A DNA stretch of 64,000 nt from sequence record KF147891.1; one strand, given 5' to 3'. The stretch comes from Pseudomonas phage PaBG. The notes below the pieces were generated by a model. That model worked only from the letters and a program-made list of their open reading frames with translations. It did not search any database and was not told where the DNA came from. This document shows positions 9,603-26,843 of this stretch, in pieces. The translations under genes and the position numbers were made by a program. How positions within the stretch are numbered: position 1 is the stretch's first letter; the number at the start of each line of letters is the position of its first letter.

Positions 9603-11618
9603 TTAGTCCTCCAGACCCAGCAGACGGCGACGGTATACAGCATCTTCTGCAACGACGCCACGGAACCAGAGTTCTTGCTCGTGGTTGGCGAACGGATTGA
9701 TGCGAATGAGATTGCGGTGTTCAGGCGAGAACGCGATCGGTTCTAGGAAAGTCTCATCGACCTCACCCCAGCCCTTGATGCGAACGATGTCCTTGTCCTT
9801 GACTGCCTTGGGTGCGGCTTTACGGCACTCATCGAAGGTCATGCCACCGTAGAGTTTGCCGTCATGGAGCACAGCATACAGCGGAGCCTTGACGCACCAG
9901 ACGCGGCCTTCTTTGAACAGGTCTGGCAGCAGTCGGTAGATCGCCGCTAGGAACAGTACGGCAATGTGCCCACCATCCGGGTCCGGATCGACCAGGAAGA
10001 TGATGTTGCCAGTACGCAGATTGTCGGTCGACAGACGCGGGTTCTCAGCTTTCGGATCGAGCGTCTTGATGTCGGCGCCCAGGCTGATGAGCATGTTCTG
10101 GATTTCTTCGTGACCCAGAATCTTCGCCAGGGTCGCTTTCAGTGCGTTCAGTGGCTTACCGCCAGCACCCAGCACTTCCTGATAGTTCGCGTCTCGGGCG
10201 TCGATTGCAGTACCTGCGGCCGAGTCACCCTCAACGATGAACAGCTCGCGCTCATGTGGCTTGGCCTTGTCGGCGACAGCAAGTGCGCTCGGCAGACTGG
10301 AGCCCTTGATCGACTTCTTCGCGTCAGCCATGGACTTGACGACAGCAGCGAGTTCTTCACGGCCCTTGTTCATCACCAGTGCGCGCTTGATGATGGTCTT
10401 CGCAACGCGCTGGTTGGCTTTGAAGTACTCCTCGAACACTGGCAGCATTGCCTCGTGAACTTCGCGGTCGACCTTCGAAGCCAGCTTGTCTTTCACCTGC
10501 GAGGTGTACTGGGCGCCGTGCATACGCCAGTCAAACATACCAACCAGACCGATCAGCAGGTCAGAACCAGAGAATCCATTGCCGCCTTTCTTCTTGCCCT
10601 TGGGCTGAGTCATGTACGGCTTGATCGCAGCCATCAGGGCGCTGGTAAATCCGGTGACGTGCCAGCCACCATCGACAGTCGGCGACGTGTTCACGAACGT
10701 CAGGAAGTGGTCGGCATCCGGATGGTCAGCCCACACGACAGAGCAACTGATGTTGTCGGTCTTGAACGTCATGGGCTTGCCGATCATGCCCAGTTCGCGT
10801 TCCTCACACATTGCCTTGGGTACCCAAGCCAAGTCCTTCTTGTTCAGGAAGGTAAACGCTTTGGTCTTGCCGCCCTTGATGACCTTGAAGCGAATCTCCA
10901 GACCTGGGTTCAGGTTCGCCATGTTCTTCAACCACATGGCAATCGGCTTGGCCTGGGGCGAGGCATGCACATAATCTTTCGGCAGGGCCTTACCACGACG
11001 GGCAGACTCAGACACGACGGTCTGGTCGAGCTTGCCCGCGATGATGGTGCCGTACTTGCTCTGCTTCATCGACAGGCGCGAGGCCACGTCCTTGTCGATG
11101 CTCTTGACCTTGATCGGGTCTTTACCCTTGGTTGTGATTTCGCCTTTCGAGAACGACTGGAAGGCGCACTTGCCGTTGTACATACTCCAGACACGCAACT
11201 CCTCGCACACGGCGTTCACCGCCGCAACACCAACGCCGTGAGTACCGGCCGAAGTCTTGTACGAATCGGAGTTGAACTTGCCACCTGCGTGGGCGCGAGA
11301 GAACGCGGCCGTCATGATGGTCTCTTTCGTCCCGTCTTTCAACTTCTTGTAGTCGGTCGGGATACCGCCAGCAGCGTCGGCGACGATGTGGAAGTCGGCG
11401 TCGTAGTCGAGGATGACCTCGATCAACTTGTTACGACCGGCGATGGCCTCGTCGTATGCGTTGTCTACCTCTTCCTTGATGACACGGTACGCCATGTCAT
11501 GACCGAGGTTACCCAAGTACATCGTGGGGTTTATACGGATGCCTTGGAGGCCCTCCGCGATGACGAAGCCCTCCTGAGAGGCAGACTTCTTCCCCTTCTT
11601 GATCTTTTCCTTAGCCAT
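9603..11618 (-). CDS. type II DNA topoisomerase, GyrB-like ATPase/Toprim subunit (T4 gp39-like)
   Basis: GHKL ATPase motif GTHGVGVAAVNAVC and Toprim motif LFIVEGDSAAGTA. Adjacent to and co-directional with the A subunit. Confidence 0.85.
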   Translation of the reverse strand: MAKEKIKKGKKSASQEGFVIAEGLQGIRINPTMYLGNLGHDMAYRVIKEEVDNAYDEAIAGRNKLIEVILDYDADFHIVADAAGGIPTDYKKLKDGTKETIMTAAFSRAHAGGKFNSDSYKTSAGTHGVGVAAVNAVCEELRVWSMYNGKCAFQSFSKGEITTKGKDPIKVKSIDKDVASRLSMKQSKYGTIIAGKLDQTVVSESARRGKALPKDYVHASPQAKPIAMWLKNMANLNPGLEIRFKVIKGGKTKAFTFLNKKDLAWVPKAMCEERELGMIGKPMTFKTDNISCSVVWADHPDADHFLTFVNTSPTVDGGWHVTGFTSALMAAIKPYMTQPKGKKKGGNGFSGSDLLIGLVGMFDWRMHGAQYTSQVKDKLASKVDREVHEAMLPVFEEYFKANQRVAKTIIKRALVMNKGREELAAVVKSMADAKKSIKGSSLPSALAVADKAKPHERELFIVEGDSAAGTAIDARDANYQEVLGAGGKPLNALKATLAKILGHEEIQNMLISLGADIKTLDPKAENPRLSTDNLRTGNIIFLVDPDPDGGHIAVLFLAAIYRLLPDLFKEGRVWCVKAPLYAVLHDGKLYGGMTFDECRKAAPKAVKDKDIVRIKGWGEVDETFLEPIAFSPEHRNLIRINPFANHEQELWFRGVVAEDAVYRRRLLGLED

Positions 11619-14892: not shown

Positions 14893-15954
14893 ATGGCAAA
14901 CAAATCAATCACGAAAGCGCGCAGCCCGCTTGCTACCAAAGGTGACAAGAACAAGGTCGTGGAAAAAGACCCGGGCATCATTGTCGATGACCTGACTCAC
15001 GTCCTTGAAGAGTTGCAGGAGTACGGAGGCCGCACGAAGCAGATGGGCTCTAACGTCCATGTGCTCTGTCCATTCCACGGCGAGAAGACGCCGTCATGTT
15101 CAATCAACCTGAGTCGCGAGGCTGACGTTCCGATCGGTGCGTTCTTCTGCTTCGGTTGCGGTGAGAAAGGCGCCTGGAACAAGTTTGCCAACCAGACTGG
15201 GTTGAAGAAGCTCAAGAAGTGGCAGCAGTTTGAATCAAACACCGACGGCGGAAAGCTGCGATTCTCGAAGCGGCAGATCGAGTTGATGGGCGCGAACAAC
15301 ATGTCCATCCAACGGTTGTTCGATGAGGTCGGTAACGCTGTAATCCCGTGGCCGCCTGAGCGTAAATGGCGTTCGTACTCAGGGAAGTTGATCAGCCGCA
15401 TCGGTGGGTATTGCTACAACGACGACCATCGCGATGAGCTGATGTTGGTGTTTCCTGTTTACACTAACGGCAGGTACCGTGGCGGTGTTCGGGCCTTCTT
15501 TGAGAAGCAAGACAATGGCTTGTCGTACCTGACGACCAAAGGCGACTGGGTAAAGTCGTACGGGCTGCTTGGGTACGACTACATGATGAAGAAGGACCTG
15601 TGGGGTTGCAAGAGCATCGTCCTTGTTGAAGGTCCGCGTGACTGGTTGCGCCTTGTGAAGAACAAGATTCCGTCTTGCGGTATTCTCGGTTCCAACATGT
15701 TTGACGCGAAGAAGTTGCAACTCCTCGTGGCGTTGGGAATCAAGAAAATCTTCGTCATGCCGGATAACGACAGAGCAGGCAAAAAGATGGCGAATCTGGT
15801 GAAAGGGTTCGCCAAGGAATTTGGCATAGACTGCGAGTATCTGAAACTGCCTCGTCCGATCAACGAGAAAGGCGAAGTGGTAAAACTCGACCCAGACAAC
15901 TGCGACCAGAAGATCATCGACAAGGTGAAAGAGCTGGTGTACGCGGTACGGTGA
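14893..15954 (+). CDS. DNA primase (DnaG-like: CHC2 zinc finger + Toprim)
   Basis: CPFHGEKTPSCSINL...FFCFGCGEKG zinc finger. Toprim motifs IVLVEGPRDWL and VMPDNDRAG. The tracker start is an upstream TTG; ATG MANKS is used here. Confidence 0.8.
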   Translation: MANKSITKARSPLATKGDKNKVVEKDPGIIVDDLTHVLEELQEYGGRTKQMGSNVHVLCPFHGEKTPSCSINLSREADVPIGAFFCFGCGEKGAWNKFANQTGLKKLKKWQQFESNTDGGKLRFSKRQIELMGANNMSIQRLFDEVGNAVIPWPPERKWRSYSGKLISRIGGYCYNDDHRDELMLVFPVYTNGRYRGGVRAFFEKQDNGLSYLTTKGDWVKSYGLLGYDYMMKKDLWGCKSIVLVEGPRDWLRLVKNKIPSCGILGSNMFDAKKLQLLVALGIKKIFVMPDNDRAGKKMANLVKGFAKEFGIDCEYLKLPRPINEKGEVVKLDPDNCDQKIIDKVKELVYAVR

Positions 15955-16229
15955 CGAAAGTGATTGAGCTAGTAGGCGTAGAGCAGTTGCACATTGGAAA
16001 GTTGACACCTGCGGAGATTAAGCGTGACTACCACCGTTACCTGATCGAGGACGTGTCGTCGCTGTTCTACGAATACCGCAATCGCCAAGTCGCACGCGAC
16101 GAAGTGCAAGAGATTAGACGACGAGTGGAGTTTCTTGAGGAAGCGTACCACAGCATCAACGGCAGGACATTCGGAATCATGTTCAACACGCATGACGGAT
16201 ACTTGGATATGTTGCTGTACCCACTGTAA
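15951..16229 (+). CDS. hypothetical small protein
   Basis: GTG start overlapping the primase TGA (GTGA coupling). Confidence 0.4.
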   Translation: MTKVIELVGVEQLHIGKLTPAEIKRDYHRYLIEDVSSLFYEYRNRQVARDEVQEIRRRVEFLEEAYHSINGRTFGIMFNTHDGYLDMLLYPL

Positions 16230-16233
16230 TACT

Positions 16234-16259
16234 GGGGAGTCTTCGGACTCCCTTTTTAT
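16234..16259 (+). terminator. intrinsic terminator
   Basis: GGGGAGTC-uucg-GACUCCC followed by UUUUUAU. Exact copy of the terminator at 31716-31742. Confidence 0.8.
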
Positions 16260-16295
16260 GGCCTGCGGAAAGTCCACAAACTATTCGGTGGAGAC

Positions 16296-16333
16296 CTAAA
16301 AAAGGGAGAGCACATGCTCTCCCTTTTTGTTTG
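16296..16333. terminator. bidirectional intrinsic terminator between convergent genes
   Basis: A-run, GGGAGAGC-acau-GCUCUCCC, T-run. Terminates rightward and leftward transcripts. ORF 16314..17012 on the + strand, which starts inside it, is spurious. Confidence 0.7.
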
Positions 16334-16346
16334 GCGCTGGATGGGA

Positions 16347-17018
16347 TTACTGGCCTTCGGGGCGAGTTTCTTCTTCCAGCTTCATTTCTTCCAGCTGCTC
16401 GGCAGCGTAGGTCTTGATTTCGGCATTGCCGGCGTGCTTGCTGATGTACTCCAGATCAGCCAGAGTCAGCGTGTGCAGCTTGCCGTCGATTTCGCTGATC
16501 AGGTCAGCGGCATCTTCATCGCCTTTCGAACGGCCGACGATGTTCTCGACGAACGGGTTCTCGCTGCCGGCGCCCAGCTTCTCGCTCAGGCTGCGAGCGT
16601 GCGAGTCGTCGATGTTGGCTTCGGCGCCCAGGATCGGATCGTTGCCTTCTTCGATGACCTCGTAGATACGCTTGGTCTCGGAGATACCGCGCGGATCGGT
16701 CTCGATGAACTTCTGGGCTTGATCCGGATCGACCAGCTTGAACAGACCCTTGGCCACCAGGCGGCGGAAGGTCGGGTCGCGCAGGACGGAGGTCTTCTCG
16801 GCGAAGTTGGCGAGGTCGACCGGTGCGCTGGTGACGGGCACAGTGATGACCTGGCGCTGACCGGCGCTGTCGGTGATGTTGAAGTTGACGTTGGCGCTCG
16901 GATTGCTGCGATTCAGCACGAACAGTCGGCTGTCTTCGGATACTTCGGCGTCACGGATGGAAATGAGAGTGAACTTAACCTTGGCCACGATGAGAGGTCC
17001 TCGTTTTGGTGAAAGCAT
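16347..17018 (-). CDS. hypothetical protein
   Basis: Start MLSPKRG with SD ggaga. An alternative GTG start at 16988 gives MAKVKFTL. No recognisable motifs. Confidence 0.4.
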   Translation of the reverse strand: MLSPKRGPLIVAKVKFTLISIRDAEVSEDSRLFVLNRSNPSANVNFNITDSAGQRQVITVPVTSAPVDLANFAEKTSVLRDPTFRRLVAKGLFKLVDPDQAQKFIETDPRGISETKRIYEVIEEGNDPILGAEANIDDSHARSLSEKLGAGSENPFVENIVGRSKGDEDAADLISEIDGKLHTLTLADLEYISKHAGNAEIKTYAAEQLEEMKLEEETRPEGQ

Positions 17019-17532
17019 CGACCACTGTCTCCAACTCCTTTGGCGTCCACCTGAACAGCAGATGAATGGCGAAGCGATTGAAGTCTGGGACGATTCGGTT
17101 TGCGTACTCAGGGTTGAGCACAAATGGGAGCATCCAGACTTGAATGTCCAAATGCTTTATACGGAACAGCTTACTGCGGAAGGACTTCTTCAACAACTGC
17201 TTGGCTTCGCTCGGAAGCTGCCGCATCATGTGAGAGTTTAGTCCATGCTCAGGCCGCTCGTTATTCTGAACGTGCCGAACAACTTGGTTGAGCGCAAGCA
17301 CTGCCTGCACTCGACTTACTGCTCGCTTCCGTATGGAAGCGACTTCCCGTTGGCTGTGGTTCGGGAACTTAAAGATCACCAGCTCGGCGTCGCTCATGCT
17401 CTTGTCATTTGCGGCAAAGCTGGTGTCCATACTCAGGCAACGACTCGGTGTCTTCTCGTTGTACATCTTGCACGTGGCGATTCGACACTGGGTCTTGAAG
17501 CGGTATGCGTCGTGAAGTGGGCATTGTTTCAT
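16975..17532 (-). CDS. hypothetical Cys-rich protein, possible DNA-binding regulator
   Basis: N-terminal CPLH...C...C and the segment SQREVASIRKRAVSRVQ resemble a zinc finger plus an HTH. Weak support. An aaactgtaaagg motif lies upstream on the - strand. Confidence 0.35.
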   Translation of the reverse strand: MKQCPLHDAYRFKTQCRIATCKMYNEKTPSRCLSMDTSFAANDKSMSDAELVIFKFPNHSQREVASIRKRAVSRVQAVLALNQVVRHVQNNERPEHGLNSHMMRQLPSEAKQLLKKSFRSKLFRIKHLDIQVWMLPFVLNPEYANRIVPDFNRFAIHLLFRWTPKELETVVDAFTKTRTSHRGQG

Positions 17533-17594
17533 GGCAAATCTCCATAGACACCTTGGTGTCCCTGGGATGCCTTTACAGTTTGCCTACAAACTCC

Positions 17595-18236
17595 TTAGGA
17601 CTTCCGCCGGCGCTTCTTGGTCTTTTTCTGCTTGGGTAAATGCGCAGGCAGAAAGTTGATCGGAGGTGCAGAGGACAATGCCTTGAGTAGTTTCGCCTCT
17701 TTCTCGCGTGTATCGATGAAGGAGAAAGGACGCACACCCAGCAGCTTGCAGCCGACGTAGATGCCGAGCAACATCGAATCCAGTTGGTGGATGGCGATCT
17801 TGGTCAGCTTCTCTTTACGCAGGTCAGCAAGGTCAAGGTACATTTCCTTCAGGTCGGCGTATCGATTGAACTCGTTCTTCCACACACCTGCCGTGATGAA
17901 GTCGGCGTTCTTGATGTGGTTAGACTGCTGAGCCATGCAGCCCAACATGCAGTTCACGGACTCAATCGTTGGACCTTTACCGCCACGAGCTTGGAAGCGC
18001 TCTGCTACAAACGCATCCAGATTCTCAACCTCGAACAACGGTTGGACGTAATCGCGGAACGTATTCAACGAACTCCGCATGGTCTTCATATCTTTCAGCA
18101 GACGCTGCGGATCAAGCATCGTCGTGCCTTCGCACTTGAACTGGAATCGGTTGTTTGCCCATCGCAAGCGCATGATCGACACTGCGAAATTGGATGTTCC
18201 TGGGTCCATTGCGAGAATGCGCAGATCAGTCATTGC
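17595..18236 (-). CDS. RuvC-like Holliday junction resolvase
   Basis: Start MTDLRILAMDPGTSNFAVSIM matches the RuvC family catalytic motif (D-P-G-[ST]). SD aaggag. Confidence 0.6.
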   Translation of the reverse strand, partial: AMTDLRILAMDPGTSNFAVSIMRLRWANNRFQFKCEGTTMLDPQRLLKDMKTMRSSLNTFRDYVQPLFEVENLDAFVAERFQARGGKGPTIESVNCMLGCMAQQSNHIKNADFITAGVWKNEFNRYADLKEMYLDLADLRKEKLTKIAIHQLDSMLLGIYVGCKLLGVRPFSFIDTREKEAKLLKALSSAPPINFLPAHLPKQKKTKKRRRKS

Positions 18237-18324
18237 ATCACTCCTTCGAATATGAGGGCAAATAACTATCTCATGGTTCGCAGCTCGGTCGTGTAATTTA
18301 CTCACAGATTCGGAGGAACAACCA

Positions 18325-19446
18325 ATGGCAATCAAACGAGGCACGAACACGATCCGCCGCGAACACGCTCGGAACTACACGCACGTTCAGGCGCAAAAGA
18401 GGCTGGATGAGGCAGTGGCTCCGTTCAATCGGCAGGTCGAAAACTCGCTGGCTGTGGATGCAGTAGAAATCGACTACTACCACATTCAACAGAAGACAGG
18501 CATCCCGTGCACCTGCGAGAAGGTGGCACTTGAGCCGCTGATCGACGACCTGGAAGAAACCAACATCCCGCCGATCATCCCAACGGCAGACGATGACAAC
18601 ACAGGCATCAAGGTCAAGTTTCAGGACGACGAAATCTTCGGTGACAGCATCGCCGAGAAAATCTTCAACGACGGGCCTGATACCATTATCGATGTCACAG
18701 GAGACAGCGGCCGTTCGACGTTCCAAGAACTCAAGGCCATGGGTGAGGACAACTTCGCCGATGGGCTACTCGGCGGAGGAAGTGTCGATTGTGGCGTGTG
18801 TTACCGTACAGGCTTCCAACCGCCGTACAAAGCATACGGCAAGCAGCGTTTCATCTTCACCAATTATCAGATCGAAGGTGCTAGTGGGTACCGAGTAAAC
18901 ACCACAAAGCAACCTCACACAATCGAGCGGCATTCGCCGAGCACGCCAGGCTACGTCATGTTCAAGACGCTGGTGCCGAAGTATTTCGTGTCGTTGACCT
19001 ACAGCATCCGAGATAACCTCGTGTATCTGGTCAGCGACAAACTGTTCCGTACCGACGGCGAGCCGTTGCGTGCAGAAGACGTGCGGTCGTTTGCCGGACG
19101 TGAAATGGAGTTCTTGGTCAAGGCTGAGTGCTTCACGCACATTGTCCTTGAGTTTGAACTCGACGTACCAAAGCTGCTGGCGAATATCAGCGGGGAAGTT
19201 GCGGCCCTTGACTACGAGCGGCTGGTGACCATCGGAGACATCAACGTCATCCTACCGCCGTCACTCGCCGAAGTCGAGAACGGGGACATTCTCATAATCA
19301 AGAAACGCAACCTGGCATTGAAGGTGCGCGATAAGGACCGCAAGATCACGGCAGACAAACGTCGGCTGGAGTGGAGCGTTTCTACTCGCGTGCTGCAACC
19401 AACAGAGGCACTGCGCAACATTGCCGCAGGCTTCAAGCTCTACTGA
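18325..19446 (+). CDS. hypothetical protein
   Basis: 373-aa ORF. Upstream gtgtaatttac promoter-like motif. Confidence 0.5.
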   Translation: MAIKRGTNTIRREHARNYTHVQAQKRLDEAVAPFNRQVENSLAVDAVEIDYYHIQQKTGIPCTCEKVALEPLIDDLEETNIPPIIPTADDDNTGIKVKFQDDEIFGDSIAEKIFNDGPDTIIDVTGDSGRSTFQELKAMGEDNFADGLLGGGSVDCGVCYRTGFQPPYKAYGKQRFIFTNYQIEGASGYRVNTTKQPHTIERHSPSTPGYVMFKTLVPKYFVSLTYSIRDNLVYLVSDKLFRTDGEPLRAEDVRSFAGREMEFLVKAECFTHIVLEFELDVPKLLANISGEVAALDYERLVTIGDINVILPPSLAEVENGDILIIKKRNLALKVRDKDRKITADKRRLEWSVSTRVLQPTEALRNIAAGFKLY

Positions 19447-19454
19447 GGTGATGT

Positions 19455-19706
19455 ATGGGAATCACAGTGATTGTAGTGCGGCAAGACGGACGTAGCGTCG
19501 CATCGTCTCTTGCGACCAACAACACGGTGGTTGTTGAAAATCTTGGAGGCCTGCGCCACGTTGTTCGAGGACGTAGCGTCTCCAAGGTCATACTGGTAGA
19601 CCTGAAACGCAGCGAGCTGAATGGCGAACTGGCAGATACGATTCAGGCCGGCACCAAAACACACGAACTCGAAACTGGGGCTCCTGTCCCGTACCTGGAG
19701 GTTTGA
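19455..19706 (+). CDS. hypothetical small protein
   Basis: 83-aa ORF. Confidence 0.35.
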   Translation: MGITVIVVRQDGRSVASSLATNNTVVVENLGGLRHVVRGRSVSKVILVDLKRSELNGELADTIQAGTKTHELETGAPVPYLEV

Positions 19707-20152
19707 CAATGGACCAACGTGACATCAAAATCATGGGCAACATGGTTGCTCTCGCCCGTCGAGGCAAAGGCAAAGGTGCCGGGTCGAAGCGTAGCCTGAT
19801 GCTGCGCACCATTCTGCCGCACCTGTCGAAAGAAACTGGCGACCTGTTGGCGAACGCGATTCAGCAGGGCAACACAGCCAAGTTCAACAACATCTGGAAC
19901 AAGGTACGCGACGAAATCTCCACGAAGATTGCTCACCGTCACGCTGCGCACGCAGGCAACGAGGAGTACGAAGGCCTGGGTATCGCTTTGGCGGGCGAGT
20001 CTGGCTTCTTCAAAGTCTTCGGCGAAGAGTTCGGTCGCATGATGGACGAAATCAACGCCAAGCGTAACGAGGAAATCGCACAGGGCCGTATTCATCCGAA
20101 GGGCAGCCCGCTCTATCGAGCAGAGGATGACCCGATCGCTCACCTGCCGTAA
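19703..20152 (+). CDS. hypothetical protein
   Basis: 149 aa. ATGA overlap with the previous ORF. Confidence 0.45.
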   Translation: MTMDQRDIKIMGNMVALARRGKGKGAGSKRSLMLRTILPHLSKETGDLLANAIQQGNTAKFNNIWNKVRDEISTKIAHRHAAHAGNEEYEGLGIALAGESGFFKVFGEEFGRMMDEINAKRNEEIAQGRIHPKGSPLYRAEDDPIAHLP

Positions 20153-20160
20153 TTCCTGCG

Positions 20161-20205
20161 AAAACCCGAGTAGTGCTCTGTGCCTGCTCGGGTTTTTCAT
20201 TTTGG
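20161..20205 (+). terminator. intrinsic terminator
   Basis: AAAACCCGAG...CUCGGGUUUU stem followed by UUUUUCAUUUU. Confidence 0.75.
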
Positions 20206-20399
20206 GCGTCATTGGCGATTTCTGGTACAAGACGCCATTAAGATAGCGCAGACCCAGTGATCTGCGGAAACGTCCTAGAGGATGCGATTCAAGGAAACGC
20301 GCCGCGATGACCCCGTACGCCTGACAAGGCATAACGTAGGTTCGTTTCTTCGCAAAGTGCCCTGCTTTTCCTGTGTCAGTCACACTCGTTCAAACGCCC

Positions 20400-20470
20400 G
20401 TTTGAAAATATTTTTCGTCGATTGATCACTTTTTGTACAGCATTTTTGTGACCACGGATTTGGTAAAATG
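20400..20470. other. AT-rich tract (DUE-like) inside the 1.4-kb non-coding region
   Basis: tttgaaaatatttttcgtcgattgatcactttttgtacagcatttttgtg...ggtaaaatgg, in an otherwise roughly 58% GC genome. Confidence 0.4.
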
Positions 20471-20472
20471 GC

Positions 20473-20619
20473 AGGTCCTACGCAGCGGGGCGCCATCAGG
20501 TTACAACCTTCCGTACGTTTTTCGCAAAGGTGCAAGGTTTGACTACTGATTGCAGTAGCGGACGATTCCGCAAAACACGCATTCTATGCGAAGGACCTAG
20601 TGAAACTTGCGAAGGACCT
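20473..20619. repeat. three copies of a 12-mer TGCG(A/T)AGGACCT (two direct, one inverted)
   Basis: aggtcctacgca at 20473-20484 (inverted). tgcgaaggacct at 20587-20598 and 20608-20619. Confidence 0.5.
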
Positions 20620-20675
20620 GCCGTTCTGCGGAAACGCAAAAATCGGAGCACTCGTTTTGACTACTGATTGCAGTA
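20538..20675. repeat. two direct 20-bp repeats TTTGACTACTGATTGCAGTA, 118 bp apart
   Basis: Copies at 20538-20557 and 20656-20675. Each contains the interrupted palindrome TACTG-attg-CAGTA and a TTGACT -35-like hexamer. Confidence 0.55.
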
Positions 20676-20914
20676 ACAGATTCGTGTGGGTAGCATGTGA
20701 CCGAAAAAGGACCCACCTAAAGTCGAGACCTTTTGCACATAGGATTACCACGGGGCGGTCCTACGGCATGGCATTTCCCGTGACCATCGACCTCGCTGGA
20801 GAGCGCGTAGAATCTAGCTTCCAGAGCGGTTGGTGAAAAAATGTCCAACCTGTCCAAAAAATAACCAAAAAGCAGGGAAATCGAAAAAATGGATAGTGTC
20901 AAGTACCACGAAGT

Positions 20915-21000
20915 TACTTCGCATCTTCTCCTTCCAGTCTCTTCCAGTCAAGCTGACAAGCTCGTCTCGTCCCTCGCCTCCCTCTCGTACAACTTCGTCG
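20915..21000. repeat. pyrimidine-rich (CT) tract with a cttccagtc direct repeat
   Basis: cttctccttccagtctcttccagtc...ctcgtctcgtccctcgcctccctctcgt, with strong strand asymmetry. Confidence 0.4.
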
Positions 21001-21366
21001 CTCACCAGTGTGGTTAACTCGCATCACAGGATTACTCCAAGCGGAGCGTTAGCGTAGCGCAGGAGAGAATTGAAGAAGGCTTTCGCCGCAGGCGAAACGC
21101 GCAGAGCGCCAGCGATGCGCCTTACGCCTCTGCAATTCCCTGTGCGCAATGGCGACGATTAAAGAGCGCGGATGCTTACTTTGCCTCATTTAGCAGTGAT
21201 GCAACGTAAGCGTCTTCGCTCAAGTATCTGGGTACAAGTCTGCTTCCTTACCTCACGGAGTGAGCAGGTCGCCTGCGAAACGACGTTTTCCGAAATTTTC
21301 TGGATGAACAGGACACACTGGATGGGAGCCTTGGGAGTCTGGGTCGTCGCACATAGACACTTAGGA

Positions 21367-21514
21367 GTTCGCTGGCGCTCACTCCTTGTGAGCTTCGCTC
21401 ACGGAATTTCTTTAGCCTACGGCAGGAGTCGCTGCGCTCCTCTGGTTCGCTGGCGCTCACGGGTGACGCTCATAGACTACCGGACGTTCAAACGGCGAAG
21501 CGAGCTGGCGCTCA
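21367..21514. repeat. iteron-like direct repeats GTTCGCTGGCGCTCAC (x2) plus GCTGGCGCTCA (x1)
   Basis: Copies at 21367-21382, 21445-21460 and 21504-21514. A degenerate copy occurs at 21426-21440. Confidence 0.5.
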
Positions 21515-21562
21515 AACGCCAAGAGCATATTCCGCCCCGCCCGCCGCCGGATTCCCGCCGGA

Positions 21563-21575
21563 AACTGTGAAAATA
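21563..21575 (+). promoter_or_regulatory. AAACTGTGAAAAT promoter-like motif upstream of gene 21630
   Basis: Variant of the recurrent AAACTGTAAAT motif, about 55 nt upstream of the ATG. Confidence 0.4.
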
Positions 21576-21629
21576 GTTTGCACGCCACAATAAACGCCGG
21601 GCGAAAGCCTCGCAATAAGGACATCGAAC

Positions 21630-22436
21630 ATGGGAATCTACCTTCGCGTCACCGATCAGGCGCTGATCGACGCTGTTTCAAACATGAGAGGGAACACCAC
21701 CCTCGTTCAGGACAAGACTCTGCTGGAGCTGTGCAAGGCTGCCAGCCATGTGCATTACGAGAATGGCGAGCCAGTGGGTTTGCTGGTCGATCACACCATG
21801 CGAAAATCGGAGCTGACTGCGCACAGCCTGGAAGGGCTTGTGTTGCGACGTGACGACGTTCCGTGTTTCGGCCGTTTGTGCTCGCTGTACGTTCCGAATC
21901 GCAGGACGATCATCGGAAAAGAGATTGCGTCTATCATGGATGCAATCTCCCAGTCGTCTCGCGTTGCGCGCTACGCTGTTGACTTGGTTGCGCCCAGGAT
22001 CAAATCCAAAATCGCCATCGATGACTTCCAGTTCGACTACCGCGCCCAGGCCCGCGTTCACTTCATCGCCGGCAACCTGTACATCGGCATGGCGGGTGTC
22101 AGCATCGTTAAGCATGTGTATGACGTTGGGCATGGTGTGGAGTTGATCGAACGTGCCGAGTATCGCGCCGCAGTGAAGCAACATCAGGTATCCGCACACA
22201 ACCATCTGTTCAACGAGAACGACAGTCTGGTGCACCGTGCGAAAGCCGCGCTCGACCCATTCCTGCCGCTTGATTTGGCTGTGGTTAGTTCGCTGCTGAC
22301 CGACATCTATCAACGGGTGATCGTCAAACCAAAGGACATCGCCCATTACATTCCGCATGTGTTGCTGGAGCGCGAGCTGATGTATGTCTACGCCTCGCTC
22401 GTTGCGATACTGCATGCCTTCTACGGGGTGGAGTGA
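21630..22436 (+). CDS. hypothetical protein
   Basis: 268 aa with SD aagga. First gene after the non-coding region. Confidence 0.5.
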   Translation: MGIYLRVTDQALIDAVSNMRGNTTLVQDKTLLELCKAASHVHYENGEPVGLLVDHTMRKSELTAHSLEGLVLRRDDVPCFGRLCSLYVPNRRTIIGKEIASIMDAISQSSRVARYAVDLVAPRIKSKIAIDDFQFDYRAQARVHFIAGNLYIGMAGVSIVKHVYDVGHGVELIERAEYRAAVKQHQVSAHNHLFNENDSLVHRAKAALDPFLPLDLAVVSSLLTDIYQRVIVKPKDIAHYIPHVLLERELMYVYASLVAILHAFYGVE

Positions 22437-22777
22437 TGAACACCGTACTGCTTCTGGGCTTGGCAGTTTTCCTGTTCTTCTGGCTGACCGTCATCTGGAG
22501 CCGCTTCGTCACTGACGTGTATCTGAATGTGGCGCAAGCGGCAATCGATGCCTCTCGGTGCTGCATGTTGTTCGACCAGATCACTGCCGGCGATTGGGAT
22601 TTCTCTACGGTCTGCAACTCCTGCGAGTTTGACCTTCCATTCGTTGACTTTGCCTCGCAGCCTATCTCTTGGTGGCCTGCTGTCTGGGTGTGGGATTTCA
22701 TCGGACGGCAGATCGTCATGGAGCACAGCGCCAGCAACATGGAGCTCGATTGGGCTGGCGTGGAGTTCTCGGTATGA
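22433..22777 (+). CDS. hypothetical membrane protein
   Basis: N-terminal TM segment LLLGLAVFLFFWLTVIW. ATGA overlap. Confidence 0.45.
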   Translation: MMNTVLLLGLAVFLFFWLTVIWSRFVTDVYLNVAQAAIDASRCCMLFDQITAGDWDFSTVCNSCEFDLPFVDFASQPISWWPAVWVWDFIGRQIVMEHSASNMELDWAGVEFSV

Positions 22778-23451
22778 CTGAGCATCAGGTATTGCCTGAG
22801 GAAATCGCCAATAACCAACGGCTGCTGCGCATCCACATTTCGCTGACGTCCGAAGAACTGCGTGAGTATTTTGCCATGCGCTCTGCGTGCCGAGAGCTTC
22901 CAGCAGGATCGGAAGCCCAACGTGCTCTCGTTGGCAATTTCACCCAACGCTTCTCTGATTTCGTGGCTGACTGGAAGACGTTTGGTGTTACGCAGTACCC
23001 GACGCCGCTGCTTCCGTCGCTGCCGTACAACTACTTCGCCACGATCGACCGTGAGCACGCATCTGGTGCCGTGCTCTTTCTGCTAGCGAACCCGTCGCCG
23101 CAGAGTCGCGCAATCTACGCCCATTGGGCGACGTGGAGAGCAATGCTGGCTGCGGTTGGTTTAGGTTCGTTGCATGACGATCTGTGCCAGTGGAGTTCGT
23201 ACTTGCAAGTCATGCGCAAGGTCTGCTCGCAGAAGACGTTCCCGCGTCAAACCCTCTGGGCTGAACTGATTCCGCAACTGGTGATGCGCCGCGACTTGGT
23301 AGACGGCCGCGTAACTGGCGTCGTTGCTTATGTTGCCCGCTGCATCCGAGACTGCCTTGGGTTGGATCGTAATTCCGATCGTCTGATAATCAGCGACACC
23401 GGTCTGGTAGTTGACGGACCTGCCCTTACCATTGAACGGAGACTCCCATGA
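22774..23451 (+). CDS. hypothetical protein
   Basis: Trimmed to MTEHQVLPEE (ATGA overlap with the previous stop). Confidence 0.45.
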   Translation: MTEHQVLPEEIANNQRLLRIHISLTSEELREYFAMRSACRELPAGSEAQRALVGNFTQRFSDFVADWKTFGVTQYPTPLLPSLPYNYFATIDREHASGAVLFLLANPSPQSRAIYAHWATWRAMLAAVGLGSLHDDLCQWSSYLQVMRKVCSQKTFPRQTLWAELIPQLVMRRDLVDGRVTGVVAYVARCIRDCLGLDRNSDRLIISDTGLVVDGPALTIERRLP

Positions 23452-24098
23452 TGGAAAACTTCCTCACGCACGACGACATCGTAACCTTCTTCTCGGACAT
23501 GGATGTCAGCGTGCAAATCCTGCAGCAACACCAGGGTTCGCAGTACACCGACATCAACGGCCAGCAGGCTGTCGCTGCGTTCGCAGAGTTCAGCGGTCAC
23601 ATTCCTTTCCCGAACACTGACGGTGATCTGCGCGAAGCGGCCGCAGCGCTCAAGCGCAAACTGCGCGAAGCTCGTGGCGACGCCAACACCGTACTGGTTC
23701 GTTCCATGGTCGCCACCTCGGCACCCACAGGCGTGTCCTTGTTCGCACACTGCGCCTTCGTCAAGGCCTTCGTCGAAGTCGATCCGCGCACTGAGCGCGT
23801 TCGTCGTTTGGTTGAGCGCGGCGAGTGCTGCAACGTCGGCGATGTGGCTCACGCTCTGATCCTCGGCTATCGCTGCGCCCGACCTACGTGGGAGAACGAT
23901 GCGTTCATCTACCTGCAGAACGCGAGCGAGTTCAAGGTCAATCGCGCACCTCTGCTCGGTATTTTCCCCGAGGGCACCAACATCAAGTTCGAGGCGCACA
24001 TCGATCAGTACCAAGACGACGGCAGTGTTCGCGTCTGGTCGCCGAGTGTTGCCGACATCCTGGCCACCGACTGGATCATCCTGGCTCACGAAGTGTGA
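23448..24098 (+). CDS. hypothetical protein
   Basis: 216 aa. ATGA overlap. Confidence 0.5.
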   Translation: MMENFLTHDDIVTFFSDMDVSVQILQQHQGSQYTDINGQQAVAAFAEFSGHIPFPNTDGDLREAAAALKRKLREARGDANTVLVRSMVATSAPTGVSLFAHCAFVKAFVEVDPRTERVRRLVERGECCNVGDVAHALILGYRCARPTWENDAFIYLQNASEFKVNRAPLLGIFPEGTNIKFEAHIDQYQDDGSVRVWSPSVADILATDWIILAHEV

Positions 24099-24227
24099 CA
24101 GCCGAAGTCGAAAATGCTAATTGACTAAGCACTGAAAAGTGTAAACAAAGTTCACTGGTCACTGCGAGTGCGTCGGAAGTCCCCCGACATTCAACCGATG
24201 CCCACACTCCTCGCAGTGATCCTTTTT

Positions 24228-24303
<76 letters not shown>

Positions 24304-24325
24304 TATTCTCTGGAGATACACGAAC

Positions 24326-24799
24326 ATGCCGCAAGTTTCTGCGCCAGAAGGCGATGCGCTACTCGACCTCGCCAACATGCCTGATCCTGCCATCGACGAT
24401 GCGTTCGATCTTCACCTGATCGAGGCGAATGACGGCGTATGTCGTGCGGTCGCGCCGATCTTCAAGTCCCTGCAACTGGCGCTGTCCGATATGAGTTACA
24501 CGGACAACGGTGCGCAGTACAAGGAAGAAACTGGACATCGCGGTGCGCTGACGCTGGAGTTCTTCAACAACGTCGGTGGTCAGCAGTGGATCGACGGTTG
24601 CGACGCGCTCATCGCCGAACTCGATGCCGTTGTATTCCACGTGTACCATGCCAACGGCGAGCTGTACAGCGAACTCCGCTTCTCTGGCTTGACCGAGCCG
24701 GAGTTCACCCGCGAGTTCTCGCACAGCGATCCGACAGTGCAGGTCCTGCAGTACGTCTGGCTGTTTGCCGACGTCAAGGAAACTGTGAAAGAGCAGTAA
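24326..24799 (+). CDS. hypothetical acidic protein
   Basis: 157-aa ORF with SD ggaga directly after tRNA-Thr. Confidence 0.45.
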   Translation: MPQVSAPEGDALLDLANMPDPAIDDAFDLHLIEANDGVCRAVAPIFKSLQLALSDMSYTDNGAQYKEETGHRGALTLEFFNNVGGQQWIDGCDALIAELDAVVFHVYHANGELYSELRFSGLTEPEFTREFSHSDPTVQVLQYVWLFADVKETVKEQ

Positions 24800-25111
24800 A
24801 GAACATCCGACCGCCGATTGCGTGCTCGTCCCACGTGATCGACGGTTTTGGCAGCGACTCCGCTAAGCTGCCGACCAGATGGGTGTGCGGAAGGGTTCGG
24901 CGGAGGTAGCAACTTCGCCGTCGATTGGCCAGTGCAGCGCGTCCTCAGCGTACTCGTCCTACGCAGTCCTCAGCGCTGTACCGCCGTTAGCGTTTACCAA
25001 GCGCCTGCCGAATGCCTGCTCGTCCCAGGATTGGCTGGCCAAAAGACGCAAAGCCCTGCTCGACTTTCCGGTGGAGTAGTAACCGGCTCGATTACTTGAA
25101 GGAGAACAGGC

Positions 25112-25348
25112 ATGTTCCTTTCGCTTTGCCTTGGGCTTGCTCTGGTGTGCGTTGAGCCGACTGCTCCGCCTACACGACCAGATGTCGTGTACTACCAGAC
25201 AGAGACCCGCATGGTTGCTGTTCGGGAATACACCGAACCAAAAGAAGTCGCCGCACTTCCGGAACAGAGTGGCGGTGCGCCCTATCCACGATCAGCGCCT
25301 AACGACCGCGGTCGTGAAGGCCACCGATGTACCATCGGGGTTGCCTAG
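25112..25348 (+). CDS. hypothetical small exported protein
   Basis: SD aggaga. N-terminus MFLSLCLGLALVC is signal- or lipoprotein-like. Confidence 0.3.
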   Translation: MFLSLCLGLALVCVEPTAPPTRPDVVYYQTETRMVAVREYTEPKEVAALPEQSGGAPYPRSAPNDRGREGHRCTIGVA

Positions 25349-26105
25349 CTGTCCGGAGCTTCCGCGATCCCGCCCCAAACCGAAACACCACATCGCTAGG
25401 CTTAACGGCCAACAAAATCGCTGAGAGCGAATGAAGTGCGCGAGAAATCGTAGGCACTAAGAAAGGGCAAGGCGGCACGTTAGAGAACAAGGCAAGAGGC
25501 TGACTCGCTGGATTTAGCGACCAGATGCGCCGGGAAACAAACCTCTGCCGCCTGCCAACCTAAAGCGGACTGATGAGTGGTTCAAGTCCACATGGCGAAA
25601 GCCTCGGGTGAAAGGCCCACGAAACTCAAACGAGTATCCGCATGAACGCCGCTCCTGGATGAGCGGTGGGTTCAAGTACACCGACCCACTAATCGGGTCG
25701 TTTCTCGGAGCTGCTTCTGCTGAGATTTCTGTGCGTAGTGAGAAGCCATAGGAGCCTTCGGATACCTGGTCGGCTCATGCCGATAGCGCTTTTTCATCGG
25801 CGCTATCGTACAGGGTTATGGTGGTCATGTGAAACACAAGCACATGCACGCTGCACTCGTTCCCGCCCGCGAGTTCCACCATGCCTGCGGTGAAAGCCAC
25901 AGGTGCAGCCTATTTATGCCATCACGCTCGGCAACGTGCTGAGAAGAAAGAAACGATAAGGCGAGTCTACATACGCCGATCGGCCGCATAGCAGCCCATT
26001 GTGGCAGCCGCATAGTGCCGATTGCCGTTGCGACCAAGCACTTGGACACAAACGCTTCTTGAGTCGTCGAGCGTGATGGCACCCTATTGAACAGAGGTAA
26101 CACGT

Positions 26106-26288
26106 ATGTGTATTTGCCGCCGTGCATGGTTCCTGATTGTCGTCAGCGCATTGTACCTGTTGGGTTGCGTTGTCGCATGGTCCATGGGTTGTCTGAATGT
26201 TTACGTCAACCCGGCACAGCTGGTATACGTTGCCGTTCTCTCTGTTCCGCTGTGGTGCAAGTCAGTAGGACGTTTGCTTCACATGTGA
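26106..26288 (+). CDS. hypothetical small membrane protein
   Basis: 60 aa with two hydrophobic segments. SD agagg. The overlapping ORF 26087..26296 was rejected. Confidence 0.3.
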   Translation: MCICRRAWFLIVVSALYLLGCVVAWSMGCLNVYVNPAQLVYVAVLSVPLWCKSVGRLLHM

Positions 26289-26294
26289 GTCTGT

Positions 26295-26388
26295 GACCCA
26301 GTAGCTCAGTTGGTAGAGCGCGTGAACGCCTGCGCCGATAGCGGGAGTAACGTCATAGAGGTCGAGAGTTCAAATCTCTCCTGGGTCT
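26295..26388 (+). tRNA. aberrant tRNA-like element (possible tRNA pseudogene or non-canonical tRNA)
   Basis: Perfect 7-bp acceptor stem (GACCCAG/CTGGGTC), canonical D arm (TAGCTCAGTTGGTAGAGC) and T arm (GAGAG-TTCAAAT-CTCTC). There are 43 nt between the D and T arms. The only 5-bp stem with a 7-nt loop (CCTGC-GCCGATA-GCGGG) is displaced 8 nt and lacks U33. Confidence 0.35.
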
Positions 26389-26394
26389 GCCTAT

Positions 26395-26405
26395 TTCTGT
26401 AAAGG
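26395..26405 (+). promoter_or_regulatory. TTCTGTAAAGG promoter-like motif
   Basis: Variant of the recurrent TGTAAA motif directly upstream of ORF 26406. Confidence 0.3.
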
Positions 26406-26615
26406 ATGTACACGATGTTGCCGTCAATGCACTTTCCACTAAAGCGTCCTGTGCTTACTCCAGAAGAAGCCAGTGCGTCGCGTGCCAGAACCCTTGAGGC
26501 TATTCGCAAATGCCGCGAAGCCCAAGCTGAACTGGAGCGAGTTTGCCGTGAGAAAGGCATTGAGATTCCGGTGATGGTCTGTCGTTCTAGTTTCCGAGTT
26601 CGTTCGGGTCGTTAG
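26406..26615 (+). CDS. hypothetical small protein
   Basis: 69 aa. The 3' end runs into the tRNA-Lys gene. Confidence 0.3.
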   Translation: MYTMLPSMHFPLKRPVLTPEEASASRARTLEAIRKCREAQAELERVCREKGIEIPVMVCRSSFRVRSGR

Positions 26616-26681
26616 CTCAGTTGGTAGAGCATGGCGCTTTTAACGCCGTGGTCGTTGGTTCGAGTCCAACACGACCCACCA
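26606..26681 (+). tRNA. tRNA-Lys (anticodon TTT)
   Basis: GGGTCGTTAGCTCAGTTGGTAGAGCATGGCGCTTTTAACGCCGTGGTCGTTGGTTCGAGTCCAACACGACCCACCA. Acceptor stem and D arm identical to E. coli tRNA-Lys. Confidence 0.8.
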
Positions 26682-26689
26682 GTTTCATA

Positions 26690-26765
26690 GGCCCCATAGT
26701 CGAGCGGTTAAGACGCTTGCCTGTCACGCAAGAAATCGCGGGTTCGATTCCCGCTGGGGTCGCCA
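26690..26765 (+). tRNA. tRNA-Asp (anticodon GTC)
   Basis: Anticodon arm CTTGC-CTGTCAC-GCAAG. T arm GCGGG-TTCGATT-CCCGC. Encoded CCA. Confidence 0.75.
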
Positions 26766-26766
26766 T

Positions 26767-26843
26767 AGGACGTTAGCTCAGTTGGTTAGAGCATCTGACT
26801 TTTAATCAGAGGGTCCTGGGTTCGAGTCCCAGACGTCCTACCA
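26767..26843 (+). tRNA. second tRNA with anticodon TTT (tRNA-Lys-like)
   Basis: AGGACGTTAGCTCAGTTGGTTAGAGCATCTGACTTTTAATCAGAGGGTCCTGGGTTCGAGTCCCAGACGTCCTACCA. Anticodon arm TCTGA-CTTTTAA-TCAGA. Separated from tRNA-Asp by 1 nt. Confidence 0.65.

Follow-up and report, generated by a model that had tools for sequence, protein, structure and literature searches.

A conserved two-part non-coding locus with covarying hairpins in Pseudomonas phage PaBG and other Lu11-like jumbo phages

The 64,000-nt stretch of Pseudomonas phage PaBG analyzed here (sequence record KF147891.1; the window) contains, at 20153-21629, its biggest gap without a credible gene; the other intergenic regions of the window are far shorter. 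It represents a two-part non-coding locus that is conserved among Lu11-like jumbo phages, with a variable 5' half and a 3' half built of hairpins that are kept by compensatory changes. On its 5' side are genes for a DnaG-like primase, topoisomerase subunits, a PD-(D/E)XK nuclease and a RuvC-like resolvase. On its 3' side lies an operon of unknown small genes that ends with a Tad2-like protein, followed by five tRNA genes, the tRNA cluster being 2.6 kb downstream of the gap. An earlier sequence-only reading had proposed the region as a candidate replication origin or regulatory hub between the primase block and an operon of unknown small genes, and the gene neighbourhood agrees with this placement. 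In Lu11 a Pol III gene is also found near the equivalent locus.

Relatives were collected by a protein search with the neighbouring 373-amino-acid (aa) protein (18325-19446), which gave a metagenomic series from 91% down to 34% identity, and the contigs were compared. The protein is 46% identical to its counterpart in Pseudomonas phage Lu11, 45.5% to that of HRDY3 and 27-35% to those of phage NCTB and of Dickeya, Erwinia and Yersinia jumbo phages. By sequence comparison of the proteins that flank the gap, the window falls in the Lu11-like jumbo phage group, which was named the 'Lupandier group' in the phage PaBG paper and for which a phage-encoded sigma-70-like factor was reported (PMC7412058). 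A gene-free gap is present at the same syntenic place in all 14 lineages. Seven of them keep 1435-1477 nt, namely the window (1477 nt), L006 (1459 nt), L009 (1473 nt), L011 (1477 nt), L018 (1475 nt), L029 (1466 nt) and L014 (1435 nt). The gap measures 1310 nt as called in L017, 1297 nt in L028, 1135 nt in L030, 1085 nt in both L013 and L031, 748 nt in Lu11 and 630 nt in HRDY3, and in Dickeya JA11 and Erwinia Y3 about 390-435 nt of it is left. The public assembly collection has one of these lineages in 122 of its blocks. When 50,697 phage records were searched with the gap by nucleotide BLAST, neither the near nor the distant mode gave a match, and viral-contig scans using the flanking proteins returned nothing. 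A search of viral and metagenome contigs with the 20-base pattern of Block 3 (see below) recovered already-sampled lineages, one partial new relative (L026) and one chance match (L027).

Comparison of the window with L006 gives 79% identity over the gap and 60% at the third codon positions of the two flanking genes; the single 100-nt bin of the gap at the neutral level is 20253-20352 (58%). Towards the distant lineages overall gap identity is about 47% and the sequence is otherwise saturated, yet sharp islands persist: Block 1 (20374-20450), Block 2 (20536-20557), Block 3 (20850-20929) and several within 21080-21600. Purifying selection acts on almost all of the 1.4 kb. The sequence-only reading had taken the region for a functional non-coding element rather than junk, and the conservation of its position, size, sequence islands and hairpins across the phage clade bears this out. 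The features of the locus are as follows; bit scores for the module called M are from a covariance model, R1, built from 21361-21450 (87 positions, 13 pairs).

20161-20200 (hairpin with flanking runs at 20161-20196), no strand assigned: terminator-like hairpin AAAACCCGAG...CTCGGGTTTTT, an inverted repeat with an A run before it and a T run after it
20374-20450, plus strand: Block 1, with GTGTCAG, the palindrome TTCAAACG-CC-CGTTTGAA (20389-20406, 8-bp arms) and AT-rich CGATTGATCAcTTTTTGTACAGCaTTTTT
20467-20484 and 20608-20625, also 20587-20598, plus strand: arms of an inverted repeat around Block 2 copy 1 (18 nt, 89% complementary)
20538-20557, plus strand: Block 2, copy 1 of TTTGACTACTGATTGCAGTA, containing the operator-like palindrome ACTGATnnCAGT; conserved in 7 lineages
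20656-20675, plus strand: copy 2 of the 20-bp repeat TTTGACTACTGATTGCAGTA, at this place only in the window and the L006 lineage
20850-20903, plus strand: first part of Block 3, phased A-tracts and then the promoter-like motif GGATAGTGTCAAG (ACTGTCAAC in relatives)
20907-20929, plus strand: invariant core CACGAAGTTACTTCGCATCTTC with hairpin CGAAG-TTA-CTTCG (20909-20921); all but two bases invariant in 8 lineages
20915-21000, plus strand: pyrimidine-rich tract, partly conserved
21040-21123, minus strand: inverted module M (R1 22.2 bits, E ~4e-5)
21174-21211, plus strand: hairpin GCTTACTTTGC...GCAACGTAAGC with a conserved CAGTG inside; other stem sequences in L013, L014 and L029
21234-21268, plus strand: conserved AAGTCTGCTTCCTt, then hairpin CTCAC-GGA-GTGAG (21252-21264) within an outer stem CCTG/CAGG
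21361-21450, plus strand: direct module M (R1 58-85 bits in 9 lineages; the expected plus-strand copy is present throughout the window's clade)
21446-21514, plus strand: second and third 'iterons' of the sequence-only reading, TTCGCTGGCGCTCAC (21446-21460, a conserved unpaired block) and GAGCTGGCGCTCAA (21502-21515)
21533-21558, plus strand: C-rich G+C block CCGCCCCGCCCGCCGCCGG..., whose equivalents close the gap in most lineages, Lu11 and HRDY3 among them
21560-21576, plus strand: promoter-like motif GGAAACTGTGAAAATAG (GGAAACTGTGAA) upstream of the operon that starts at 21630

Analysis of the open reading frames (ORFs) shows that the gap carries no coding signal. A codon-usage log-likelihood was trained on the 37 long ORFs of the window; the flanking genes score +78 to +149 and all ORFs of the gap score between -32 and +4, the two best being +4.1 (42 aa) and +2.4 (38 aa). 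The description of the 1.4 kb as free of any ORF was not literal, since a 132-aa ORF with an ATG start is present (21172-21570; score -30.5); the absence of credible genes that it was meant to convey stands. Substitutions relative to L006 have no 3-nt periodicity (chi2 <=2.9, compared with 9-50 for the flanking gene), and neither genome-like codon usage nor a preference of changes for codon position 3 was seen in the gap. It could be suggested that the region is a decayed gene, a set of unannotated small proteins or a neutral spacer, as it holds the 132-aa ORF and several ORFs of 40-80 aa, and two tiny ORFs were annotated in the Lu11 gap. We consider this very improbable, because the scores are negative or near zero, the substitutions lack codon periodicity, the invariance of the blocks extends to every codon phase and synonymous sites are less conserved than the gap. 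A 42-aa small gene at Block 3 was rejected for the same kind of reason: its frame, start and length vary by lineage and all three codon positions are invariant. ARAGORN finds no tRNA or tmRNA in the gap, the five tRNAs of the window all being at 24228-26843. None of the 4227 Rfam models, which include GOLLD, ROOL, group I and II introns, RNase P, tmRNA and 6S, reaches its gathering score in the gap. At E up to 10 only a chance ALIL match appears in the window gap (11.7 bits against a 50-bit cut-off), and Rfam gives nothing in the equivalent gaps of L011, L014, L013 and Lu11.

The distant lineages have in common at least nine short hairpins, and their pairs are kept through compensatory changes across lineages. 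In a hand-curated set of ten hand-aligned helices, each in 4-9 lineages, 353 of 380 cells are canonical (93%) and 31 of the 56 paired positions carry compensatory double changes; when the 3' arms are permuted among lineages, the observed pairing is matched in at most 0.4% of trials for four helices (p ~0.004 or lower). In an unfitted MAFFT alignment 87.9% of cells are paired, compared with 71.2% after shuffling and 33-41% with the partners slid, and the covariation score is 0.398 against 0.168 in shuffles; for both measures 0 of 500 shuffles reach the observed value. For example, the inner stem at 21252-21264 is paired in 40 of 40 cells over 8 lineages with compensatory changes at four of its five positions (permutation p ~0.001), and it reads CTCAC/GTGAG, TTCAC/GTGAA, TTTGC/GCAAA, TTCGC/GCGAA or CGCAC/GTGCG depending on the lineage. 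Around the loop TCGCTnnCGCTC of the hairpin at 21364-21385 the stems GGAGT/ACTCC, GGTAT/ATACC, GGCAG/CTGCC and ACCTC/GAGGT are found. The hairpin at 21388-21402 appears as GTGAGC/GCTCAC, GAGAGC/GCTCTC, TTGAGC/GCTCAA, GTTGC/GCAAC and GAGGGC/GCCCTC, and that at 21081-21097 likewise shows compensatory changes (TTCGCC/GGCGAA, AGCGCC/GGCGCT, TGTGCC/GGCACA). At 20909-20921 the loop varies (TTT, TCA) and in L030 the helix is replaced by ATAC/GTAT; the invariant core around it, at 20907-20929, is a candidate transcript 5' end or recognition site. The hairpin at 21174-21211 is absent in the L009/L011 group. Two further approaches were set aside: a crude scan of all hairpins (G.T 27, A.C 29) is dominated by chance hairpins, and GCC-UUC-GGC, first taken as a UUCG tetraloop, is actually a triloop, and the RNA-specific argument built on it was dropped.

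Two of these hairpin groups are copies of one another. The direct module M opens with the hairpin GGAGT/ACTCC around the loop TCGCTGGCGCTC (21364-21385), which carries the first 'iteron', and continues with the hairpin GTGAGC-TTC-GCTCAC (21388-21402), a T-rich linker (21405-21413), a small hairpin GCC-TAC-GGC (21415-21423) and a last hairpin GGAG/CTCC around TCGCTGCG (21425-21440), a variant of the same motif with 11 nt. The inverted module, read on the plus strand, has a purine-rich run, the hairpin TTTCGCC-GCA-GGCGAAA (21081-21097) and the hairpin GCGCA/TGCGC around the loop GAGCGCCAGCGA (21099-21120). With R1 it is found on the minus strand at the same place in L006, L009, L011, L013, L014, L017, L018, L028 and L031; these matches are weaker than those of the direct copy and lie 226-251 nt upstream of it, with L014 scoring 29 bits and L031 34 bits. 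Lu11 has one module only, on the minus strand, with the whole model covered (40.5 bits, E ~3e-11), and HRDY3 shows a weak minus-strand match. Based on the R1 matches, the 3' domain is built from a three-hairpin module of ~85 nt, in which a stem with a loop of 11-12 nt is followed by a GC hairpin, then by a U-rich linker with a small hairpin behind it, and lastly by the motif for a second time; in the window's clade it forms an inverted pair ~240 nt apart. In the Lu11 record (L002) Lu11_0129A (11000-11197) and Lu11_0129B (11417-11548), annotated as hypothetical proteins, fall inside the equivalent structured gap, where the module match is at 11179-11265; these two are probably not genes.

Eight loci, ~170 kb in total, contain 22 occurrences of the module's motif (TCGCTn(n)CGCTC or its complement), all of them inside the gap. 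In the window the motif has four full copies: an inverted one in a hairpin loop (21104-21115), a direct one in a hairpin loop (21369-21380), the 11-nt variant in a hairpin (21429-21439) and one in a conserved unpaired block (21447-21458); a related partial copy lies at 21504-21514. The third 'iteron' copy is present also in L006, L013 and L029, with AGCGCCAGC upstream of it in the window, L006 and L013. The loop of the hairpin at 21099-21120 is perfectly complementary to the loop at 21369-21380, and the two changed together in the window lineage (CC vs GG). The complementarity between the module copies amounts to -87 kcal/mol in the window and L006 and to -50 to -72 kcal/mol in other lineages; the idea of a lineage-specific complementarity was rejected, as it is clear only in the window and L006 and absent elsewhere.

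These repeats were the basis on which iterons, with an AT-rich DNA unwinding element, had been proposed. Three exact copies of GCTGGCGCTCA are indeed present (21371, 21449, 21504), an inverted copy at 21103-21113 having been missed; with at most one mismatch there are 7 matches where 2.4 are expected, and 0 of 100 shuffles reach 7. Their identity as iterons was not sustained. In place of three or more direct repeats of ~17-22 bp with regular, helix-phased spacing we find an 11-12-nt motif that sits mostly in loops of covarying hairpins, with irregular start-to-start distances (78 and 57 nt) and a further copy in inverted orientation 265 nt upstream, and there is no adjacent AT-rich unwinding element. 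Because of the covariation tests on the surrounding hairpins, the 'iterons' are understood as parts of a conserved single-strand structure. The AT-rich tract itself is real (68% A+T at 20400-20470, window average 45%), but it is ~650-1000 nt away from the motif copies, is conserved by sequence and is missing in Lu11, HRDY3 and L031. The GC skew that was to be checked is weak within the 64 kb; its cumulative curve, instead of dipping near the gap, passes through a broad maximum at 17-23 kb, which is the wrong polarity for a bacterial-type origin. With 52% G+C between the two module copies in addition, the specific origin anatomy is not supported.

An origin of another kind, primed by transcription or using single-strand hairpin signals on both strands, is the main rival reading, and the scarcity of wobble pairs and the mirrored modules keep it in play. 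It is possible, though we lean away from it, that the locus works at the DNA level, as an origin of replication or a site of priming. The hairpins might then perhaps form in unwound single strands or cruciforms, and the mirrored modules could conceivably set the same signal on two strands flanking a 240-bp core, by analogy with the primosome-assembly sites of ColE1. The motif displayed in the loops might, just as tentatively, be a site for an initiator, a primase or a nicking protein, and the upstream promoter might possibly activate or prime initiation, as is the case for T4 oriF/oriG, T7 and ColE1. The location within a replication and recombination block, the inverted module pair with its conserved spacing and the uniqueness of the signature motif to this locus fit such a role. 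So does the conserved 373-aa protein, which across the relatives is always encoded just upstream of the gap and has invariant CxC...CxxC cysteines (C62, C64, C156, C159), a zinc motif. Its AlphaFold2 model (mean pLDDT 73.5, with a confident, beta-rich C-terminal domain) has no match among PDB folds; the protein has no Pfam or PDB-sequence match and belongs to a PHROG family without known function. Against a DNA role stand the inter-module core without an unwinding element, the only AT-rich block being ~700 nt off and not universal, the lack of regularly spaced direct repeats, the single module of Lu11 and the skew that peaks instead of dipping. The neighbouring proteins, moreover, gave no usable PHROG, Pfam or PDB-sequence assignment and no recognisable initiator gene is among them, and the promoter-like motif and the GAAA tetraloop described below fit an RNA equally or better.

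At the start of the 3' domain, and exactly there, the sequence [AT]N[ACT]TGT[ACG]AA occurs on the plus strand in all lineages but two (12 of 14); these two, the window and L006, have a close variant, GGATAGTGTCAA, just outside this pattern. On the minus strand no such motif is found at a consistent place across lineages. The Lu11 motif at this position was annotated by its authors as a 'putative middle/late promoter', one of four that share CTGTAAATA, and this annotation puts the promoter for the next gene ~600 nt upstream of it. In all lineages the domain downstream of the promoter-like motif is 455-760 nt long. AAACTGT(A/G)AA occurs nine times in the window, five or six times in intergenic positions just upstream of genes, in a sequence that by a rough gene call is 81% coding. 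By its resemblance to the Lu11 promoters it is a candidate phage promoter class. The promoter-like GGAAACTGTGAA that had been noted before the gene at 21630 is there, at 21560, and recurs at 24778. Sites of AAACTGT(A/G)AA include 17572-17583 (minus strand), 21560, 24134, 24778, 29193, 31753 and 59564, one of them before tRNA-Thr. K-mer enrichment in the intergenic regions of the window gave no clear promoter motif. Two compositional claims were also confirmed, the CT-skewed tract at 20915-21000 (72% C+T, 14% G) and the G/C block near the end of the gap (84% G+C at 21530-21560).

The 5' half is organized differently. The terminator-like hairpin at 20161-20200, which closes the upstream operon and with its A and T runs could act in both directions, has an equivalent hairpin with a T run at the start of the gap in other lineages. 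Block 1 is near-invariant in seven of the eight aligned lineages with saturated flanks, and nhmmer detects it at E 1e-21 to 1e-24 in the conserved lineages and more weakly in L013, L029 and L028 (5.5e-8 to 1e-5); its AT-rich part (20396-20450) has 65% A+T. It is likely a protein-binding or promoter region. No equivalent of Block 1 was found in Lu11, HRDY3, L030 or L031, and Lu11, HRDY3 and L031 still keep the 3' domain. Two copies of TTTGACTACTGATTGCAGTA 118 bp apart (20538, 20656), each with the palindrome TACTG-N4-CAGTA, had been described correctly, and this palindrome occurs nowhere else in the 64 kb. The palindrome ACTGATnnCAGT recurs 1-4 times per phage (4 in L014), and judged by sequence these copies look like operators for a phage DNA-binding protein. 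In Lu11 (L002 10880-10960) and HRDY3 (L001 11140-11180) repeated CCTAAT/ATTAGG palindromes lie upstream of the promoter motif in place of ACTGATnnCAGT, which suggests lineage-specific operator sets for different regulators. TGCG(A/T)AGGACCT was said to occur three times; two copies are direct (20587, 20608) and the third (20473-20484) is on the opposite strand and is therefore an inverted-repeat arm. The TGCGAAGGACCT 'repeats' are thus the arms of the inverted repeat at 20467-20625. Inverted repeats of other sequence are found at a similar place in L009, L011 and L017; a long-range helix around Block 2 is not claimed, the duplex energies being no better than shuffles (z +0.6 to -1.6). Since the 3' domain has 455-760 nt everywhere and the 5' half varies from 146 to 790 nt and in Lu11 and HRDY3 gives way to a short stretch with CCTAAT/ATTAGG repeats, we regard the 3' domain as the core shared by all and the 5' half as clade-specific control.

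With so many regulatory signals, one explanation is that the locus serves transcription control alone, i.e. that promoters, operators and terminator or attenuator hairpins insulate the replication genes and time the downstream operon, and that neither an RNA nor a DNA structure has a function of its own. The terminator at 20161-20200, the promoter-like motifs at 20891 and 21560, the repeated palindromes, the hairpin with a U-rich tract inside the module on either strand, the distant promoter in the Lu11 annotation and the lineage-specific operator-like repeats upstream of the promoter motif (ACTGATnnCAGT, or CCTAAT/ATTAGG in Lu11 and HRDY3) are all in line with it. We nevertheless hold this to be unlikely, as such control does not need ~650 nt with at least nine hairpins that change in a compensatory manner at conserved spacing, nor purifying selection over nearly the whole 1.4 kb, and other intergenic regions of the window are much shorter. 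The proposal of a 'regulatory hub' is partly borne out because the locus lies in the replication and recombination block and has promoter-like and operator-like motifs.

A mechanism that fits these data somewhat better in our opinion, and that we put forward with reserve, is that the locus combines a regulatory 5' half with a structured RNA transcribed rightward (~650 nt, stand-alone or a long leader). The 5' half (~20200-20890) would be a control region with Block 1 and the ACTGATnnCAGT palindromes, and the 3' half (~20905-21555) would be transcribed from the phage-type promoter motif of Block 3 into a hairpin-rich RNA. This RNA may stand alone as a non-coding RNA or may form a long leader ahead of the downstream operon, which includes the Tad2-like anti-defence gene. 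Within a single RNA the module copies would present the complementary 11-12-nt loops GAGCGCCAGCGA and UCGCUGGCGCUC, and these could kiss or zip and so close a domain with two further conserved hairpins inside. The rightward direction is tentatively suggested by the position of the promoter-like motif, by a GAAA tetraloop hairpin that covaries on the plus strand (GUCUC/GAGAC vs GUAUC/GAUAC), by the upstream terminator and by a hairpin with a U-rich tract after the second module hairpin in most lineages, a weak signal that is present on either strand within the module.

Several observations weigh against a transcribed RNA, and some of them speak for DNA. Wobble pairs are few: the hand-curated helices have 10 G.U and 10 A.C, so that G.U does not exceed A.C, and the module has 239 Watson-Crick pairs, 6 G.U and 3 A.C, which is unusual for an RNA read from a single strand. 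Such nearly pure Watson-Crick pairing speaks for the origin reading. Many loops are C-GNA-G triloops (GAA, GCA, GTA), which the left module has on the plus strand and the right module on the minus strand. They belong to the very stable DNA mini-hairpins, d(GCGAAGC) among them, that have been reported at the phiX174 and G4 origins. In predicted folding energy the 3' half does not surpass shuffles (z -0.4 on the plus strand, -1.05 on the minus strand), another point in favour of DNA. RNAalifold on the whole region gives similar energies on both strands and is therefore uninformative on the strand. The module of Lu11 is oriented opposite to the promoter-like motif, the module as such occurring both ways; Block 3 contains the variant ACTGTCAAC of the intergenic motif and not its canonical form; and no clear terminator marks the 3' end in the window. 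The probability that remains after the readings discussed here goes to mixed or unforeseen cases.

Among known systems, GOLLD and ROOL are large structured non-coding RNAs that are often borne by phages or prophages and commonly lie near tRNA genes. The present locus resembles them in having hundreds of nt with many covarying hairpins, in being phage-borne and of unknown function and in the tRNA cluster nearby, and its complementary loops could mediate kissing contacts. It differs in that neither family matches the window or four relatives, in the few wobble pairs, in the inverted module pair and in the unexceptional folding energy. At the ColE1 origin the RNA II primer starts from an upstream promoter and primosome-assembly hairpins are present on both strands. 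Here too a promoter-like motif precedes a hairpin-rich region by several hundred nt, with mirrored hairpin signals in a replication-gene setting, and the complementary loops recall the kissing of RNA I and RNA II; on the other side, there is no sequence relationship, the 3' tail of the would-be RNA is C-rich and Lu11 has a single module. With iteron origins (lambda ori, P4 ori/crr, RK2, F) the locus shares a short motif repeated 3-4 times at one place near a primase gene, in both orientations as in P4. Unlike them it has 11-12 nt instead of 17-22 bp, irregular spacing, three of four copies in loops of covarying hairpins, and no adjacent AT-rich unwinding element or recognisable initiator. The stem-loop origins served by HUH endonucleases (geminivirus, circovirus, double-strand origins of rolling-circle plasmids) also display a conserved loop on a variable yet paired stem, but here several copies are present and they point both ways, none of the nearby genes was identified as coding for an HUH endonuclease and the phage has a 270-kb double-stranded DNA genome. 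Finally, the late leader of lambda (pR'-6S RNA-tR') and the put sites of HK022 offer a similar order of promoter, structured non-coding stretch, hairpin with U-tract and long operon, whereas our locus is several times longer, has no similarity to qut or put and carries a second promoter-like motif just before the operon. In the literature we found nothing on replication origins or functional non-coding RNAs in Lu11, PaBG or the Erwinia and Dickeya jumbo phages, nor on Lu11 promoters at this locus.

Some observations were made elsewhere in the window. A second gene-poor stretch of ~1.5 kb (24778-26290), which opens with GGAAACTGTGAA at 24778, lies between the gene ending at 24799 and tRNA-Ala; relatives have a matching gap of 1.3-1.5 kb, and in 24800-26290 no conserved blocks are common to the four lineages compared. 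The tRNA-Ala(TGC) itself (26295-26388) is 94 nt long with its anticodon at position 37, the other four tRNAs being 76-77 nt, and has an Rfam score of 48.9 bits against ~70-76 for the others; it may carry an intron or insertion. Contig L003 is 99.4% identical to the window and shows 48 differences from it, 34 of which lie in 23543-24065, in the Tad2-like (anti-Thoeris-like) gene; this suggests that this patch of 520 nt is a recombinant or fast-diversifying segment. The near-identical public contigs L003, L004 and L005 (window 15630-24264) all stop at 24257-24264, within tRNA-Thr, and two of them begin within the gap (20377 and 20998); these shared ends are probably assembly breaks and not biology.

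Whether RNA or DNA element, the locus is new. As no described RNA family or origin was matched and the pairing is kept, it is probably a new structured RNA locus. If it is an RNA, it would represent a new class of large phage RNAs, in which one half is the inverted copy of the other and the two kiss through 12-nt loops; it would be situated beside an anti-defence operon. Alternatively, and with less confidence, it might be a new type of origin in which mirrored three-hairpin modules, with C-GNA-G mini-hairpins and a loop-displayed 11-nt motif, flank a 240-bp core under a late-type promoter switch; an origin here would be the first one mapped in this group and would help phage engineering and replication studies. 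For the annotation of Lu11 a correction follows, the two tiny ORFs in its gap probably not being genes. Because purifying selection acts nearly throughout the locus and its modular architecture is defined, it is directly testable.

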